Below are positions 3,007 through 52,372 of a DNA stretch of 56,702 nucleotides, one piece after another (position 1 is the stretch's first letter; every line of letters begins with the position of its first letter). This stretch comes from Enterobacteria phage 9g: the sequence record NC_024146.1; one strand, written 5' to 3'. The translations under genes were made by a program, and so were the position numbers. Below the pieces are notes generated by a model. It was not told where the DNA came from, made no database searches, and worked only from the letters and a program-made list of their open reading frames with translations.

Positions 3007-3960
3007 TTATTCGTCAAATAAATCCTGGAGACGTTCGTTGAACTTCCCATTGTGGTTAGCAAGAATCATAGCGTTGACCACACCATACGCCCATAAATTG
3101 TATGCAGCGCGTGATTCGTATATGGTTGAAAGTCGTTCGTATGTGAAACCTGACTCCTCTAAGTAGCGCAGAACATTATTCTGTTCTATTTCTGAAAGAT
3201 TACAGATGTGCTGCCCTTGATAGTGGCGTGACGGTGACTTTTCAGATACCTGCATTGGGCCCCACTTAGGAGTTTCAATAGCACCAAACGCCGCAGATTG
3301 AATCCAGGAGGATGAGTCACAGGAGTACCACGGGTAACGCTCCATAAGCGGGCGGGACGTAATACCAAAACCATGAACTTTAATCTTAGCGCGTCCACTA
3401 CCGTCCACAAGGTGCTTATCCCATACCCTGTCCAACCATACCTGAAGTTGTTGTGTACTCGCTCCAACAAGACCACCGAGCGTGATATACTCATAGTTTC
3501 GCACATAATGGTCCAGGTATTCAAAAGGTTCACCGGCGTGGAAGCATGGTAAAGGTCTTACACCTCTGGCTTCCATCTCTTCCTGGTTGCGCCACGTTTG
3601 AAGTGGATCACCAATACCATCGAGTACAGAAGCCATAAGCGAACCATCTTCCACACGGATGATATCTATGTTTCGTTGGATGTAATCACAGTATTCTTTA
3701 ACCGATAACGTAACTCCCAAAGTGTAAGCTGAGAACGCTCCGGAGTCGAGGAATATCTTGGCCCCATCGGCACGCATGGCATCAACATAGGATTGCTTTC
3801 CAACGTAGTGCCAGGATTCGAGAATGTTTGGAATATTTTCGACAACACGTTTTTCTTGTTCGTTGAGTTTGACATAGCGGTTCATTCCTGGTTTATAGCT
3901 GTTCGTATATACGGCAGCCATATAAATCTGAAAGGTATAGTTGATATCTTGTCTGTGCAT
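3007..3960 (-). CDS. dpdA: DpdA-like DNA-guanine transglycosylase (TGT superfamily) for 7-deazaguanine insertion into DNA
   Basis: 317 aa. TGT-like IFLDSGAFSAY (cf. TDSGGFQ) and overall TGT-like length; sits at the 3' end of the folE-queD-queC-queE operon. ATG at 3960 preceded by GGTGA. Confidence 0.75.
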   Translation of the reverse strand: MHRQDINYTFQIYMAAVYTNSYKPGMNRYVKLNEQEKRVVENIPNILESWHYVGKQSYVDAMRADGAKIFLDSGAFSAYTLGVTLSVKEYCDYIQRNIDIIRVEDGSLMASVLDGIGDPLQTWRNQEEMEARGVRPLPCFHAGEPFEYLDHYVRNYEYITLGGLVGASTQQLQVWLDRVWDKHLVDGSGRAKIKVHGFGITSRPLMERYPWYSCDSSSWIQSAAFGAIETPKWGPMQVSEKSPSRHYQGQHICNLSEIEQNNVLRYLEESGFTYERLSTIYESRAAYNLWAYGVVNAMILANHNGKFNERLQDLFDE

Positions 3961-4029
3961 TGTTCACCTAACAAATAAGCGCCCGTAGGCGCTTATTATA
4001 TTAAAGATAATGTATGATTCGCAAATCAG

Positions 4030-4644
4030 TTACTTTTTACACGCTTCAAGAAATTCCCGACGCCATGTGTCACCAGTCACGTCCGGTAATACACCATCAC
4101 CCAATGCAGTACGTCCGCGGAATGCTTTAGTGATGGTTGAGCTTCCGCATACCTGTTTAACACCGCGCGACTCCATGCACATATGTTTTGCATCGATGTA
4201 GACACACACAGCTTTCGGGTCTAAGTGTTCCACGATAGCATCCGCAATCTGATTAGTCAGACGTTCTTGGACTTGCAAACGTCGAGCGAAAGCATCAACT
4301 ACCCGAGATAACTTGCTGAGACCGACGATTTTTCCATTTGGGACATACCCAACCACTGCATGACCAATAATAGGAGCCATGTGATGCTCACAATGACTAT
4401 ATACAGGGATATCACGGACGATGACCATTTCATCACAGTTTTCCCCACCATCTTCAAATGTCTTGAACAGGGATGCGATATCAACAGAATAACCCCCGAA
4501 CCATGTAGCATAAGCCTTAGCTACACGATCTGGAGTTTCTACTAGACCTTCACGCAAGTCATCGCCACCTTCAATCAACTTTAAAATCTTTTCAATACTG
4601 TGCGAAATTTCTGCTCTGTTTGTCATCTTTGTAAATTCATTCAT
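4030..4644 (-). CDS. folE: GTP cyclohydrolase I (FolE)
   Basis: Clear FolE core: ETPDRVAKAY, VIVRDIPVYSHCEHHMAPI, GLSKLSRVVDAFARRLQVQERLT. The longest ORF begins with TTG at 4680 and overlaps queD; the ATG at 4644 with an upstream AAGGA is preferred (4626 is an alternative). Confidence 0.88.
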   Translation of the reverse strand: MNEFTKMTNRAEISHSIEKILKLIEGGDDLREGLVETPDRVAKAYATWFGGYSVDIASLFKTFEDGGENCDEMVIVRDIPVYSHCEHHMAPIIGHAVVGYVPNGKIVGLSKLSRVVDAFARRLQVQERLTNQIADAIVEHLDPKAVCVYIDAKHMCMESRGVKQVCGSSTITKAFRGRTALGDGVLPDVTGDTWRREFLEACKK

Positions 4645-4670
4645 GGTTTGCAGTTTCCTTGTGTGGTCAA

Positions 4671-5204
4671 TTATTTGCAATAGTTAACATGGCATTTGGA
4701 CGTTTCTTCAATGGTGCATTCTACCAATTCAACACCATATTGGTCAAGTAGTTGAGGACCAATTACGTCAACCATATATGCAGCTAAGTTTTCCGCAGTT
4801 GGGTTGAATGGTAAAGCTACCAAAGAATTAAAGAAAGGATCGTAATCTTCATCCGTCACTAAATTGTTCTCACGTGCAAACTTAGTTGATGCAACAACAA
4901 TGAGCGAATTAATCATGCTGTCTTGTTCCCAATGCAGGAACTTATGATCCCAATTATCTTCCAACCACTGGCAGAGCGTAGTTTTAACCACACTAAAGTC
5001 GATAACCCGACCTACGTCGTCCAGCGAACCTTCTAGAGCAAATCCACTTACAGACTTAACGTAACCTTCCGACAATGTTTTCTTTGGTGCAACTTTAAAA
5101 TGGAACTTATAGTTGTGACCATGAAGATGACGACATTTGCTTTCATGCCCTACAACACGATGCCCAGCGCAAATCTCATGTGAACGAATAACAGTGTAAC
5201 CCAT
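4671..5204 (-). CDS. queD: 6-carboxy-5,6,7,8-tetrahydropterin synthase (QueD / PTPS family)
   Basis: 177 aa. N-terminal CAGHRVVGHESKCRHLHGHNYKF (Cx..HGH zinc/catalytic motif of QueD/PTPS). Confidence 0.85.
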   Translation of the reverse strand: MGYTVIRSHEICAGHRVVGHESKCRHLHGHNYKFHFKVAPKKTLSEGYVKSVSGFALEGSLDDVGRVIDFSVVKTTLCQWLEDNWDHKFLHWEQDSMINSLIVVASTKFARENNLVTDEDYDPFFNSLVALPFNPTAENLAAYMVDVIGPQLLDQYGVELVECTIEETSKCHVNYCK

Positions 5205-7385: not shown

Positions 7386-7447
7386 AATGATTTACCTTAT
7401 CAGTTGAACATACCATGTCTTCCAGCGTGTTTTGAATATGTATAACT

Positions 7448-8212: not shown

Positions 8213-8280
8213 TTGAACCTCGGGGTAAGATAACAAAGGGGCAGTAAATGCCCCTTCTGAGTTTCCGAAGTATCTACAGA

Positions 8281-11948: not shown

Positions 11949-12899
11949 TTACTCACCGTAATAATCTGCTGCTTCGTATTGACCACATGCAGCCATCTGA
12001 TCTTCCTTCGTTAATACACCTTCGGTTCCATCTGTGATGTATGCAGTGGCAGAAGCTACTTTGATTGCACATCTCCAGGTTCCATCTTCAAGCGGATAAG
12101 AGTGCTTACAGGTGCGGCAGTTAACTTCAGGCATCTTATTGTTATGACATACCGCTTTGTGGTCACACCATTTGCATTTATAGTAAGACTTACTTTCATT
12201 GATCTTAGGTGGTGGGCATTCTGCCAGTGCAATTACAAATCCACGGTCTTTGTAGCGTTCTGCGGTTTCTTTATCAAACGGTACAAGCTCTGCCCAAATC
12301 TCGTCCGTGTTCTTATTAACTGCAATATAAAGAGCGGCTGGGAGTCCATAGTACAACATGTATTCCTGCATCTGAACATAGTGCTCCCATTTGGATTCCA
12401 TTACACCATTAACGACAAGTTTCTTGAACGAATCATTATTGTGCGTTTTCATCTCCGTTAAGATTGGTGTAGAAGGTTGTGGCATGTCAGGACAACCAAT
12501 GACAATACCATCTATCGCGGAGCCAAAGTGTCCGTTGAGATAGCTGACTCGGTACTGGCTACCATTTTCGTCTTGTTGGATGACTTGCATACCGGCGGTA
12601 AGTAATAAGGCCACGAAGCGACCTTCTTCAAGATGTCCGCGATTGAATAGACGTAAGGTTTTACCGTTAAAGTGTGGTTTTGTTGCCCATCTCCATCCGT
12701 AGAAGATTGCTCTGCTACACTCTTGCCCGATAAGACTAATCCCAAGATGCGAACGGAATCCGCCATCCCCCTCTCTATATGCGTCTTCAATATGCGGTAA
12801 TACTTTTCCGAGCCATACTCTGTAAGCGGATCCTTGATCTCGTTCAATACAGTCATTGAATAACTCCATTGTCTTAGTAGCAGGATAAAAATGTGGCAT
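11949..12899 (-). CDS. Putative PD-(D/E)xK-type nuclease with C-terminal Cys cluster (Cas4/RecB-like exonuclease)
   Basis: 316 aa. C-terminal CKWCDHKAVC ... CRTCKHS ... C (Fe-S/Zn-like cluster); sits between the helicase and the recombinase genes. Confidence 0.45.
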   Translation of the reverse strand: MPHFYPATKTMELFNDCIERDQGSAYRVWLGKVLPHIEDAYREGDGGFRSHLGISLIGQECSRAIFYGWRWATKPHFNGKTLRLFNRGHLEEGRFVALLLTAGMQVIQQDENGSQYRVSYLNGHFGSAIDGIVIGCPDMPQPSTPILTEMKTHNNDSFKKLVVNGVMESKWEHYVQMQEYMLYYGLPAALYIAVNKNTDEIWAELVPFDKETAERYKDRGFVIALAECPPPKINESKSYYKCKWCDHKAVCHNNKMPEVNCRTCKHSYPLEDGTWRCAIKVASATAYITDGTEGVLTKEDQMAACGQYEAADYYGE

Positions 12900-12961
12900 A
12901 TCATAATCCTATATAGAAAAATAAAGCTCCCGGAGGAGCTTTATTATAACATGATTTTTAA

Positions 12962-13888
12962 TTACTGTGCAGCGTCATCACCTTCAGTGGAACGTTTCCA
13001 CGGTGGAGTCTTGGTCTGAGCTGCTTTAGCGATATCGTCCTGGACTTCCGGTTCTGCATGGTTAGCAGTACCAGTGTTCTGAGCTTGAGTTTGCGGTTGC
13101 TCTGCTCCAGGCTGTACCTGCTGAGTTGCCCAGTTAGGCTGCTGTGTGGTTTGTTGCTGCTGCGGCTGCTGCGCACCAGTAGCCCACGGTTGAGATTGTG
13201 CCGCGCTGTTAAAATCAACTGTTCCAGACTGCTGCTGTTGCTGTACCGGCTGCTGCGGCTGTTGTTGCTGCTGCGGTTGCTGGAACCCCTGAGCCTGAGG
13301 TTGTTGCTGCTGTTGCTGCGGCTGCTGCCCAAATGCGCCCGGGAAACCCTGCTGCTGCGGTTGCTGCTGTTGTTGCTGAGCACCACCGAACGCACCACCA
13401 CCAAATGCTGGAGATTGTGCTGCCGCTGCCGGAGTTGATTTAGGCAGGTTAGCCATATCCGCCTTAGTTGCGTATACAACACCTTCCATATTATCAATTG
13501 CTTGATAAATCTGAGGTTCGTTGTTTGGCTCATAGCCAGGTTGCTGACGAACTTTCACTTTCAGGTTAAACGGAATACCGTGCAGTTGTTCCGTATCGTT
13601 CCAGACTGGAACTTTAACAGCACGAGACAGCTCTGCCAGTTCTTCCATTGCAATCTGTACAGCGACAGGGTTCGCGTTCTTGACGTTGTAACCGCCAAAC
13701 ATCACACGACCAGCAAAATCACCCTGCATGATCTTAAACTGAAGATTCAGACGCGCACCGCCTGGAGTTTTAGTCGGTTTGATTTCAGAGTTTACAATCT
13801 GAACAACATACCAACCAGCGGGCATCAAGCTGTTGTGTTGACGCTCTGCGTGTTGTCCAGCGTTAAATTGCATTCCTAAACCGGCCAT
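12962..13888 (-). CDS. Putative ssDNA-binding/annealing protein (DUF669-like) with long Gln/Pro-rich linker
   Basis: 308 aa, ATG at 13888 with AAGGGG upstream. Globular N-terminal domain followed by a ~110-aa Q/P/G-rich low-complexity segment; adjacent to a Sak4-like ATPase gene, as is typical for DUF669 proteins. Confidence 0.5.
   Translation of the reverse strand: MAGLGMQFNAGQHAERQHNSLMPAGWYVVQIVNSEIKPTKTPGGARLNLQFKIMQGDFAGRVMFGGYNVKNANPVAVQIAMEELAELSRAVKVPVWNDTEQLHGIPFNLKVKVRQQPGYEPNNEPQIYQAIDNMEGVVYATKADMANLPKSTPAAAAQSPAFGGGAFGGAQQQQQQPQQQGFPGAFGQQPQQQQQQPQAQGFQQPQQQQQPQQPVQQQQQSGTVDFNSAAQSQPWATGAQQPQQQQTTQQPNWATQQVQPGAEQPQTQAQNTGTANHAEPEVQDDIAKAAQTKTPPWKRSTEGDDAAQ
13093..13435. repeat. 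CAG/CTG-rich low-complexity DNA encoding the poly-Gln/Pro linker
   Basis: Runs of ctgctg/ttgctg on the plus strand (e.g. 13200-13400) correspond to QQQQQQPQQQ... in the minus-strand protein. Confidence 0.7.
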
Positions 13889-16645: not shown

Positions 16646-16720
16646 GTTATCGCCCTCGTTGTTTGCTAGTAGGGGTATAATACTTAGAATTAAATTCCTT
16701 GTAAATACCCCTAAATATGA

Positions 16721-24866: not shown

Positions 24867-25903
24867 AACCTCACCTTGATGATAATAAATCTGCTAATTT
24901 TGAAATTCAGTTGCCAAGTTTTAATTTATGCAAAGTTTTTGCTATTTGCAACTGTGATATTTTGCGGTGTTTGTATGTGCAATGTTTTTGCTTTTGCAAA
25001 AATTACAGCAGTCTGAAGGTGAGAAATTGCAAATTTATAAAGATCGGTGAAAAAATGCACAATTTATAAAGATCCCGTAATACATAAAACGGCGAAGCGA
25101 AGTGTATGAAAAATAAGGGAAAATTTCGAGGATTGGGAGGTTTGTATGAATTTATATTATTTATAAAGGGGTCCCGTAGGGGTCGTCAGTAGACAACTCA
25201 AAAATAAAAAATCTTTATAAAATTTATATAAATACACACATACACACATTTTTACCTTACTTTTCAAGCACTTACCTCCTTTCATTTTGTATATTAAGCG
25301 ACTATATATGAACAATATGACATATATTTGTTGCGCAACACCTGTGCGTTTTTTAACCAATCGAAAGATTGCTTTATATACGTCCGCGCGTCTAACACAA
25401 AAGAAAAGTGGATTGCAAGCGATTTTTGCTGAGGTAACTCTCGAAGTGAAAGCGATTTGCGAGTTTGAAATTTTGTAGCCCGAAAACGATTCTATTTTAT
25501 GGTATAAATGCCGGATTTTTCGGTGAAAGCCGGCTTTTCGGCGAGGTGGGGTGGCCGAGATCGGGGTGGCGAGTCGCCCATAAGGCGAAAATAGCCGCGA
25601 AAACGGGGCACACAGCGCGATTAAATGGTTGGATCAGTGTAAGGGTGGCGGTGAGGGGTGAAAATGCCCTAAAAACGCGTACAGGGAAGCAGGGAGCGGA
25701 TCGCTGTAAGGGCGTATAAAGCGAGCAAATTGGAGTCTATGGTAATGTACGGAAGAGGGATTCAGGTTCTTAGAGCGCGAATGGTGGTGCTATGGGTGAG
25801 GAATATGTGGTCAGCGGGGTAGCGCGGGAGGTTATGCAGGTACAAAGACGAAAACGCCCCGTTGGACTTCAACAGGGCGCGGATTGTATAATGCAGTTAG
25901 AAG
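24867..25903. promoter_or_regulatory. ~1-kb non-coding region: AT-rich motif-dense half (24867-25460) plus purine-skewed G-rich half (25460-25900)
   Basis: No ORF with a plausible start/SD. Repeated TTTGC(A/G)A motifs; direct repeat AATTTATAAAGATC at ~25027 and ~25059; many G-tracts on the plus strand. Role unknown. Confidence 0.4.
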
Positions 25904-26149: not shown

Positions 26150-26217
26150 AATAGTTTCCTCTGTTAACTATGCGAAGTGCATATTATTGCCCACTGTTAC
26201 TATGGGCAATGTATATG

Positions 26218-27387: not shown

Positions 27388-27463
27388 TGTGATTATCTCC
27401 ATGCTGTTCTAGCGGATTGCTAGTGGGAGCCCACTGTTACAATGGGCAACCATTAGCACGCTA

Positions 27464-27769: not shown

Positions 27770-27954
27770 AATGCAATCTCCCTTCGGGTGAAGCGGGCGC
27801 GGAACCCGTGTCCCGCTTAAAAACCCCCTTAACCCCACGCAGTTATAGTAGGACAACGGGGTATTAGATGCAACTATTATCTGCATTATTTTAGAACTTT
27901 TTTAGTTGTGTTTCATAATAATAACATCCGGGACTATGCGGTAGATGGTGTGCC

Positions 27955-28033
27955 GGAAATACCAGGTAACGCGAGCGTGTCGAAAATACCAGGTAACAGC
28001 ATATGCCGAACATACCAGGTAGCACATACATAG
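27955..28033. repeat. Three tandem direct repeats (period 26-27 bp) with core GAAAATACCAGGTAAC
   Basis: ggaaATACCAGGTAac (27955-), gaaaATACCAGGTAac (27982-), gaacATACCAGGTAgc (28008-); cores at 27959-27968, 27986-27995, 28012-28021. Confidence 0.7.
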
Positions 28034-52000: not shown

Positions 52001-52107
52001 CAAACGTGACAGTTCGTATTAAAGTGTCCGCTCAAAATGGCAGGGGTGCGTCCATTTCTTCTCCTACTATCATAGTATCACACGGATCTGGATCATTCAC
52101 AGGTTAA
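49018..52107 (+). CDS. Tail tip/host specificity protein (lambda gpJ-like) with N-terminal gpI-like hydrophobic Gly/Ala-rich segment
   Basis: 1029 aa. YYWYVRAINAFGSSAFVEV and KYVAGIQLGMEGSGG...NNFAIYNP resemble lambda J (YYFYIRSVNTVGKSAFVEA; HYVAGIGLSMED...NRIAFIDP) as remembered. N-terminus begins MPPAIIGAVVAIGAAAGAAAGIL. Confidence 0.85.
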   Translation: MPPAIIGAVVAIGAAAGAAAGILPATAALVIGIAASAAGALLTKTQSFNFDSYTAQSERKQVIRAAAASRTVIYGTTVSSGVLVFAEEEPGEQDTNKHGENHEKLTLVLALAGHPLTGVGQVWLGDDAIETFGDKAKCIIHNNPTTVSQDMLNRCPSWKRDMIGKGICWMQLNLVFDSEKFPSGLPNVKCLKKGRKVLDPRTGNMVFSNNAALVILDYLRVYLKRSDDAILWDQFKEAANICDESVKNADNTYEPRYTINGEFDIDEAPSKILEDMLDACGGELTYIGGKHGILVGAYYGPPELTLDTSCIAGDIKITPETAFKERTNTITGTYIDPLQNYQEADFPPVSVAEWIQQDGQEITQDVDYRFVTSPYQAQRLSNLTLKRKRIGRSIEIPCNMRGYRFRPGMYVYVDIPNIGMNKVEMRVIKWQFDPKGGVTVTVRQDFPALWDDAIGKPVERPDLVDLPTGGAMQPQNLQYEVLQISDVVQGVLSWQNIMAVAYNNVVIKKDGTTVLTVQVPGQSTRITGLIRGAYTAHVKAVAYTGATSPEAYLEFNIQAPSAPTSVEVTQGYFAVTLKPKSADLANVSTQYDFWTSGETRLPSTAVDVVERQATRAGMGTTWTSEGLLNDHTYYWYVRAINAFGSSAFVEVAARCFTDAAGLIPQIDTEFKGTNTYKELMAEIGSVSDGVKSYVDDQIETSEGRLTQTIDTVQQSVVLVDGKVQQQGVTINEQGQLIDAQGKLIQTNGQQINVVKATVQEVSKSVVDLEGNVNAQWGAKIQVDNKGQKYVAGIQLGMEGSGGAIQSYFMVNANNFAIYNPTDSTADLAFAVKNGQVFMKATFIENGSIDNAKIGNYIQSNNYVAGSAGWKLNKAGDAEFNNVTVRGVVYASGGRFTGEIQATSGKFKGTVEAQSFIGDIANMHTGTNVSRTNDGSLEKVMTYTDSSSSGHARHVCVIANVKGNGAGIININGSESGSSVQDTERLIMHSAVVTGPNVTVRIKVSAQNGRGASISSPTIIVSHGSGSFTG

Positions 52108-52110
52108 ACT

Positions 52111-52134
52111 ATTAACCCCTCGAAAGAGGGGTTA
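52111..52134. terminator. Perfect 10-bp palindromic hairpin between convergent genes
   Basis: ttaacccctc GAAA gaggggttaa; sits between the J-like gene stop (52107) and the minus-strand lipoprotein stop (52139). Confidence 0.5.
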
Positions 52135-52138
52135 ATGT

Positions 52139-52372
52139 TTAGTAGTCTATAACACAGTTTGAAGGGCTCCCAATTCTTCGGTATTCGTGAGCAATCTCCT
52201 GGCACCATTGCCCCGTCATTGGGAGCTTTTCGGTATCGTAAATTAAAGAACCGTTATCGTCCCGATCCAATGGTTTTGGGATAACGCCGGAATTCGGTTT
52301 ACCGGTATCTAAGCCATTACCACATGCGGTGAGGGATAAACAAAATGTGAGCATAATCAGAGCGCGTTTCAT
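52139..52372 (-). CDS. Small lipoprotein, candidate Llp/Cor-like superinfection-exclusion factor
   Basis: 77 aa. Signal peptide and lipobox [17 protein letters not shown]; AAGGAG 6 nt upstream; the only minus-strand gene in the structural block, between tip and fibre genes. Confidence 0.65.

Follow-up and report, generated by a model that had tools for sequence, protein, structure and literature searches.

A terminator-like hairpin overlapping a promoter-like element at the folE-dpdA boundary of a 9g-type phage

Genes and sequence elements at the boundary

The window, by which we mean the whole 56,702-bp stretch of DNA that was analyzed, belongs to a 9g-type Nonagvirus. The DpdA and QueD proteins that it encodes are identical to those of phage HdSG1, and the GenBank notes of HdSG1 describe these proteins as identical to those of 9g. 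In 9g-type phage, about a quarter of the guanines are replaced with archaeosine. The early genes occupy the minus strand between about 28.1 kb and position 1, and the order on that strand is queE, an unknown ORF, gat-queC, queD, folE, a gap of 69 nt, dpdA, the gene for the polymerase clamp and that for DNA polymerase B. Between positions 7386 and 36 the ORFs are packed such that the folE-dpdA gap is the sole sizeable one. The 9g genome has been reported to have a size of 56,703 bp and to consist of divergently transcribed early (28 kb) and late regions, and one promoter at the left end was proposed to drive the 28-kb early region (PMC4276943). The genes and the gap that are central to this work are the following.

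8236-7448, minus strand: queE, recognized by the NCBIfam QueE models
4030-4644, minus strand: folE (GTP cyclohydrolase I), Pfam PF01227 (GTP_cyclohydroI), E = 6e-63, with its stop codon TAA at 4032-4030
3961-4029: gap between folE and dpdA, 69 nt
3007-3960, minus strand: dpdA (7-deazaguanine DNA transglycosylase), PHROG 887 'queuine tRNA-ribosyltransferase', E = 2e-98, with its start codon ATG at 3958-3960

The folE gene, whose start was set after the annotated orthologues of relatives (204-209 aa; the full ORF spans 4030-4680), is the final gene of the 7-deazaguanine precursor unit. The dpdA gene heads a tightly packed unit comprising dpdA, the polymerase clamp and DNA polymerase B (3960 down to 36), in which the ORF next after dpdA matches PHROG 947, processivity factor. 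DpdA was not recognized in Pfam, NCBIfam and PDB sequence searches, and its identity is based on the PHROG match together with the annotations of relatives, the orthologues in the BASEL-collection phages Bas19 and Bas20 being labelled DpdA. Both gene names given in an earlier, sequence-only reading of this DNA are thus borne out by the Pfam match, the PHROG match and the relatives' DpdA annotation, and the positions of the folE stop and the dpdA ATG agree with the gap length of 69 nt that it gave.

The gap contains the following elements; the two promoter-like hexamers were found by a promoter scan.

4019-4024, minus strand: -35-like hexamer TTGCGA (4/6 match)
3995-4000, minus strand: -10-like hexamer TATAAT (perfect consensus)
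3974-3997, minus strand: hairpin, with 5' arm AAUAAGCGCC (3997-3988), loop UACG (3987-3984) and 3' arm GGCGCUUAUU (3983-3974)
3970-3978, minus strand: U-rich tract UUAUUUGUU, in which seven of the nine positions are U; the tract shares positions with the base of the 3' arm and is broken by an A and a G
3964-3969, minus strand: Shine-Dalgarno-like AGGUGA, 3 nt 5' of the dpdA ATG, read directly from the sequence

The hairpin begins 32 nt past the folE TAA on the coding strand. Positions 3974-3997 of the plus strand read AATAAGCGCC-CGTA-GGCGCTTATT, which corresponds to a perfect stem of 10 bp and a loop of 4 nt; the stem has a 5-bp GC core and a base made of an A-tract and a U-tract. In the sense (minus-strand) RNA the loop is UACG and is closed by a C-G pair, that is, it is a UNCG tetraloop. 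The hairpin had previously been described as a 9-bp stem at 3978-3995. Nine of the base pairs are indeed present at 3975-3996, but the true stem has 10 bp, and the interval given earlier falls just inside the hairpin. The folding energy is -15.5 kcal/mol for the hairpin alone and -18.0 kcal/mol with an imperfect 5-bp extension, the best extended helix being bulged and about 15 bp long. Folding of the gap gave a z-score of -4.84 (none of 200 shuffles was as stable), and that of the 101-nt context a z-score of -3.19. Three distinct perfect hairpins with a stem of at least 10 bp are present window-wide; counted with register multiplicity they number five, versus a mean of 0.3 in 100 dinucleotide shuffles. 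These stem counts and z-scores rule out that the hairpin is a chance occurrence or an artefact, and the perfect inverted repeat that had been noticed between folE and dpdA is therefore real.

Several features are those of an intrinsic terminator. In the minus-strand RNA, UGUU comes directly after the stem, and the U-rich tract UUAUUUGUU includes part of the 3' arm. Using an approximate score of the d'Aubenton-Carafa type, which was applied uniformly to all candidates, the hairpin with its interrupted U-tract reached +8 to +10 in the sense direction, which is borderline, and about -8 in the antisense direction. It was missing from the output of a simple scan. UNCG-type loops on the sense RNA recur: cUACGg in the window and in T1-like phages, cUCCGg in a second hairpin of the window (12945-12920), and cUUCGg in phage PaMx25. 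The strand asymmetry of both loop and score points to the RNA level, and the interrupted U-run and the borderline score fit a partial rather than a strong terminator. It is probable that the hairpin acts as a terminator of some strength. A search of Rfam identified no family at the gathering threshold over the hairpin; the best matches were STnc370 (23.1 bits, threshold 54) and STnc130 (21.9 bits, threshold 55), both with E >1, and these sub-threshold matches are sRNA-terminator-like.

The promoter scan identified TTGCGA-N18-TATAAT at 4024-3995 on the minus strand, a sigma-70-like element with 10 of 12 consensus matches. The final three nucleotides of TATAAT are the initial three of the 5' arm of the hairpin. 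From the usual spacing of 7 +/- 1 nt we infer a start site at about 3988-3986, either in the loop or where the 5' arm ends. A score of 10/12 was matched by 2.6% of the shuffles of the gap; genome-wide, promoter-like hexamers are not enriched (18 found versus 24.9 expected).

Conservation in Nonagvirus relatives and in unrelated lineages

Twelve GenBank records match the 81 nt around the gap at 100% identity and three others at 98.8%, and the gap of Bas19 is identical to that of the window; the FritzHoffmann record shows 98.4% identity, limited to the first 63 nt of the 81-nt query. When eight Nonagvirus genomes were aligned, none of the 69 columns of the gap was variable, versus 239 of 621 (38%) in folE and 115 of 955 (12%) in dpdA. 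No other invariant run in the alignment is as long as the one located here.

3952-4056, minus strand: invariant block of 105 nt, in which the 69-nt gap is flanked by 27 nt from the end of folE and 9 nt from the start of dpdA

Comparison of the whole early region of the three most divergent phages, BRET, JenP1 and ChristophMerian, showed that the gap is 99% invariant versus 69% for its 150-nt flanks, a contrast that is the sharpest among the early gaps, jointly with that of the small folE-queD gap. Four substitutions were found in close and intermediate relatives; they affect the loop, the tail, the -35/-10 spacer and the sequence upstream of the -35, whereas the two hexamers and the stem are free of them. 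The sole tail variant is G3972 to A in ESCO3, and the loop variant is C to A in the relative L022. Because the stem is invariant, the Nonagvirus-type hairpin offers no compensatory changes, and support was therefore taken from the replacement of the whole hairpin in other lineages.

In the case of two close relatives, Klebsiella phage K9PH25C2 and L022, the upstream sequence has been replaced and the block consisting of TATAAT, hairpin and U-run has been kept, with a poor -35 (3/6). The hairpin heads the downstream unit whatever precedes it, be it folE, a 36-aa ORF or a 151-aa ORF, and its position is unchanged whatever has been inserted 3' of it, be it an HNH endonuclease or a lipoprotein-like ORF. 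HNH endonuclease ORFs lie directly 3' of the hairpin in SE1, JenP1, SP8, FritzHoffmann and L023. The inserted ORF has 162-164 aa (PHROG 1035; EVDHIIP...N motif) and is located exactly between the hairpin and ribosome-binding site on one side and dpdA on the other.

L007:1454-1942, L009:1454-1942, L002:2454-2942 and L011:1454-1948: HNH insertions in relatives, equivalent to about 3958-3961 of the window

The SE1-type HNH ORF borrows the dpdA ribosome-binding site and the first two codons (ATGCAC), and the insertion slot looks like a hot spot for free-standing homing endonucleases. In K9PH25C2 the same slot is occupied by a 57-aa ORF (L012:1941-2114) with a lipoprotein-like signal (…LALCAC…), and an extra small hydrophobic 36-aa ORF is present between folE and the hairpin; these ORFs look like moron-type cargo around the terminator.

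A strong hairpin followed by a U-run is present between the folE side and the dpdA side in eight lineages with unrelated sequences, namely Nonagvirus, the IMG/VR contigs L026-30, Seuratvirus CAjan, PSTCR7, PaMx25, Vibrio CA8, P. putida MiCath and Acinetobacter HD01, whose hosts belong to the genera Escherichia, Providencia, Pseudomonas, Vibrio and Acinetobacter. The layouts outside Nonagvirus are as follows.

IMG/VR L026-L030: TTGCGA or TTGCAG, N17, CATAAT, with the -10 within the 5' arm of AAACGGCAUAA-UACAU-UUAUGCCGUUU; the pair in L026 is TTGCGA-17-CATAAT
Seuratvirus CAjan and SA126VB: TTTACA-N18-CATAAT, with the -10 in the loop of AAGCCCAUA...UAUGGGCUU-UUUUUAG
Providencia phage PSTCR7: TTGGTA-N17-TATAAT, the loop itself being TATAAT
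Pseudomonas phage PaMx25: TTGCCC-N17-TATAAT, directly 5' of an 11-bp hairpin with a cUUCGg cap, annotated as a terminator
Vibrio CA8, P. putida MiCath and Acinetobacter HD01: strong hairpin and U-run, with a weak promoter match or none

All eight gaps fold into a hairpin, with z-scores from -1.7 to -6.6. The promoter match compared with shuffles is individually significant in four of the eight lineages, and the combined probability is 0.0016 (Fisher); by the shuffle test it is weak or absent in CA8, MiCath, HD01 and L026, and weak in L027, which is outside the eight. The DpdA proteins of L026-L030 are about 65% identical to that of the window, and in L026, a distant lineage, TTGCGA likewise follows directly after the folE stop. 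By the approximate score, the equivalent hairpins of L026 and L027 are negative. The record of SA126VB has a terminator and an overlapping promoter annotated at this boundary. One layout of a terminator-like hairpin plus promoter-like element recurs with unrelated sequences in phages of five host genera, an example of what looks like a conserved regulatory architecture. It is built from standard parts and leaves current understanding unchallenged.

Viral contigs were also searched with the pattern TATAATAAG-N12-CTTATTT, and the complementary core was found in 15 of 80 matches; the pattern itself imposed TATAAT, and these matches are uninformative on that hexamer. The matches beyond Queuovirinae, such as L106 and L107 after a 570-aa gene, are unrelated terminators.

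Possible functions of the element

Selection acts on the hairpin, which is an element of a standard kind. The reading that we favor, with a probability of about 0.58, is based on the sequence and its comparison and holds that a leaky terminator closing the precursor unit is interlaced with a promoter for dpdA, the clamp and the polymerase. According to this reading, an intrinsic (factor-independent) terminator would end, probably in part, the minus-strand precursor transcript (queE ... gat-queC, queD, folE), and a sigma-70-type promoter with its -35 TTGCGA at 4024-4019 and its -10 TATAAT at 4000-3995 would be interlaced with it. RNA polymerase starting at about 3988-3986 would transcribe the loop and the 3' arm alone. 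The RNA born at the promoter would escape termination, because without the 5' arm the terminator cannot form, and it would run on through dpdA and the genes for the sliding clamp and DNA polymerase. Expression of dpdA would then be the sum of residual read-through and of initiation at its own promoter, and the 69-nt gap would serve as a terminator-promoter 'punctuation mark' between the unit for precursor synthesis and that for DNA insertion and replication. That the promoter is active in addition to the terminator we consider somewhat better than an even bet. If the essential polymerase genes downstream depend on read-through, it is necessary that the terminator be leaky.

The sequence-only reading had placed the hairpin inside an operon, as a partial terminator or processing site that tunes dpdA expression relative to the upstream genes. 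Its terminator part agrees with the anatomy of the hairpin, its borderline score and its conservation in eight lineages, whereas a processing site found no specific support; the hairpin may 'tune' dpdA. The intra-operon placement has become doubtful. Because a promoter-like element overlaps the hairpin and recurs across lineages, the gap is more likely an operon boundary, and dpdA is more likely to be driven at least in part by its own promoter.

The alternative closest to that earlier proposal is a pure intra-operon attenuator, in which the hairpin would be a leaky terminator within one long early transcript, the gap would have no functional promoter, and dpdA and the polymerase genes would be expressed at a lower level by read-through alone. 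Terminator anatomy and conservation are as expected for such an element, and the poor -35 in K9PH25C2 and L022, the lineages that have no promoter match, the single early promoter of the 9g model (PMC4276943) and the lack of genome-wide enrichment of promoter-like sites all speak for it. On the other hand, a perfect TATAAT lies at 18 nt from a 4/6 -35, the TATAAT has been kept where the upstream sequence was replaced, promoter-like pairs occur at the boundary in PaMx25, PSTCR7, CAjan and L026 with the combined significance given above, and the stretch from -35 to -10 is invariant though a terminator alone needs none of it. We consider a pure attenuator plausible but less likely. It is improbable that the hairpin is instead an element of RNA stability or processing, which would either shield the folE mRNA from 3'-exonucleases after cleavage or provide a site for RNase III or RNase E, such that the halves of one transcript have different half-lives without any termination. 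A very stable UNCG-capped hairpin between cistrons, with a single-stranded AU-rich flank, would suit this role. RNase III substrates, however, typically have about 20 bp (two helical turns, as in T7 R1.1), and the perfect helix of 10 bp, or about 15 bp with a bulge, is short for this enzyme; moreover, neither a stabilizer nor an RNase III site needs the U-run that is located 3' of the stem in all eight lineages, and Rfam gave no match at threshold. It is for the length of the helix and the Rfam result that we set the earlier idea of a processing site aside.

Two further readings appear very unlikely. With its extent from the -10 to the start site, the palindrome lies where operators are classically found, putative DNA-binding proteins are encoded by the phage, and the gaps of L026 and L027 contain AAACGG twice as a direct and once as an inverted copy, as might be expected if a dimeric phage or host repressor bound here to control the dpdA-polymerase promoter. 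Yet a window-wide search for the half-site AAGCGCCTACGGGCGCTT with up to three mismatches returned just its own site and the differently sequenced hairpin at 12.9 kb, the special tetraloops are confined to the sense RNA, the T-run is on the 3' side in every lineage, and the same core is present between tail genes of unrelated T1-like phages. Even less probable is that the element is a passenger without a regulatory role of its own, its invariance being due to recent recombination or gene conversion at a homing-endonuclease hot spot. The HNH ORFs directly 3' of the hairpin, the lipoprotein-like ORF of K9PH25C2 and the unusually mosaic flanking folE are in line with such events, and recombination could account in part for the invariance of the full gap; but gene conversion provides no explanation for unrelated hairpins at the equivalent place in seven other lineages, and the hairpin is far beyond chance.

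A contribution of Shine-Dalgarno sequestration was considered as well, as the minimum free energy fold pairs AGGUGA with UUAUCU 5' of the hairpin. The accessibility of the ribosome-binding site is predicted to be equally low in read-through and promoter-born transcripts; in the eight lineages, pairing of this site with upstream sequence is weakly above that in shuffles (Fisher p = 0.02, an effect that stems from two lineages), and the two transcript types are not consistently different. Sequestration was not adopted.

The terminator-promoter arrangement that we favor may be extended by supposing that terminator and promoter form an obligate couple across Queuovirinae-type siphoviruses, in which the -10 of the next promoter lies in the 5' arm or the loop of the terminator, such that the polymerase released by termination can re-initiate at the promoter (post-termination recycling). 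This is a long shot; if true, expression of dpdA and the polymerase would depend on upstream transcription and yet be buffered from it. It is more speculative that the promoter is subject to feedback from DpdA-dependent modification of GGC motifs within the GC core.

The element is the likely border between the unit that makes the precursor and the unit that inserts it into DNA and replicates the genome, and it looks like a routine operon boundary of a 9g-type phage, not a novel type of element. A probable promoter of its own for dpdA, together with shielding by a leaky terminator, would be useful to consider when these genes are engineered or knocked out, and also when future RNA-seq data of 9g and the BASEL phages Bas19 and Bas20 are interpreted. 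A literature search yielded no usable transcriptome of Nonagvirus or Queuovirinae.

Comparable elements in other phages and in the window

That a terminator is predicted here is already known from the database records of near-identical phages. HdK1 (MK373794), HdSG1 (MK373795) and SP8 (MT682705) contain the identical 81 nt; the hairpin is labelled 'putative transcriptional terminator, -15.90, ARNOLD' in the first two records and 'terminator' in that of SP8. In PaMx25 (NC_041953) a terminator is annotated at the equivalent position, and in SA126VB (OL960573) a terminator and an overlapping sigma-70 promoter are annotated downstream of folE. The annotations in these five records are software predictions, and they include neither the conservation of the layout across genera nor the promoter overlap in the 9g group. 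What is added here is the overlapping putative promoter, the reading of the gap as an operon boundary and the finding that the layout is conserved in phages of different host genera.

Intra-operon partial terminators have been measured in E. coli, namely the rplL-rpoB attenuator and T1 between rpsU and dnaG. The element resembles these in being, as the sequence-only reading would have it, a leaky intercistronic intrinsic terminator that lowers downstream relative to upstream expression; it differs in that the promoter-like overlap suggests re-initiation, not attenuation alone. In Pseudomonas phages analyzed by ONT-cappable-seq, intrinsic terminators consist of a GC-rich hairpin and a U-stretch, are mostly intergenic and are often leaky, terminator sites being called at a read reduction of at least 20%; none of the phages mapped in that work belongs to the Queuovirinae (PMC10914365).

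The same core, AAGCGCC-UACG-GGCGCUU, is present in T1-like phages (Drexlerviridae) between co-oriented genes, followed by a ribosome-binding site and ATG. It is found in Klebsiella phage Sin4 (L033 406-425, 'terminator'), in Escherichia phage KarlJaspers (L034 ~401-429), and altogether in about 370 Klebsiella phage records and many Escherichia T1-like phages. These copies separate the gene for the tape-measure chaperone from the tape-measure gene, lack a preceding TATAAT and have an unbroken U6 tail, with an approximate d score of +31 to +37 versus +8 to +10 here. Because nearly the same core is so common in Klebsiella and Escherichia T1-like phages, it is a generic terminator module of enterobacterial phages, which may have arisen there either by convergence or by horizontal spread. 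Extra-stable hairpins of the C(UUCG)G type were reportedly found in intercistronic regions of phage T4 by Tuerk et al. in 1988; the likeness lies in C-G-closed UNCG tetraloops on short GC stems between genes and concerns the type of loop only, with no homology implied.

Several other elements of the window were observed in the course of this work. An element of the same build as that between folE and dpdA is located at 12920-12971 on the minus strand, where TGCACA-N17-TGtTATAAT, with an extended -10, leads straight into a perfect 11-bp hairpin (12945-12920; AAUAAAGCUCC-UCCG-GGAGCUUUAUU) with a U-run, 20 nt 5' of the ATG at 12899 of a 316-aa ORF (11949-12899); this gap is 98% invariant in three relatives. 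At 8235-8257 (minus strand), a terminator-like hairpin, GAAGGGGCAUUUACUGCCCCUUU with GUUAUC after it, directly precedes the queE start; together with the hairpin in the folE-dpdA gap it brackets the queE-to-folE module (8236 down to 4030) with terminator-like hairpins. At 16646-16720 (minus strand), a hairpin GGGGUAU...AUACCCC encloses a 10/12 promoter-like TTTACA-N17-TATTAT, a further case in this genome of a hairpin with a promoter-like element inside it.

A 21-nt element that forms a hairpin, TTGCCCAT(A/T)GTAACAGTGGGC, is present in two early intergenic gaps (copies at 26189-26209 and 27429-27449, minus strand), with no copies expected by chance; it may serve as an operator or as a regulatory site specific to the phage, near the early promoters. 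Three tandem 21-nt repeats (GTGCCGGAAATACCAGGTAAC-like) with a spacing of 26-27 nt are located at 27950-28023, near the divergent early/late promoter region. Two long non-coding early stretches are present at 24867-25156 and 25361-25903, with AATTTATAAAGATC occurring twice (25032 and 25061) and a richness in TTGCAA/TTGCAC; these stretches could be an origin or a regulatory region. Finally, a perfect 11-bp hairpin, AUUAACCCCUC-GAAA-GAGGGGUUAAU, with a GNRA loop on the plus strand, is located at 52111-52136 between two convergent genes, a 1029-aa ORF that ends at 52107 and a minus-strand ORF that ends at 52139, and is likely a bidirectional terminator.
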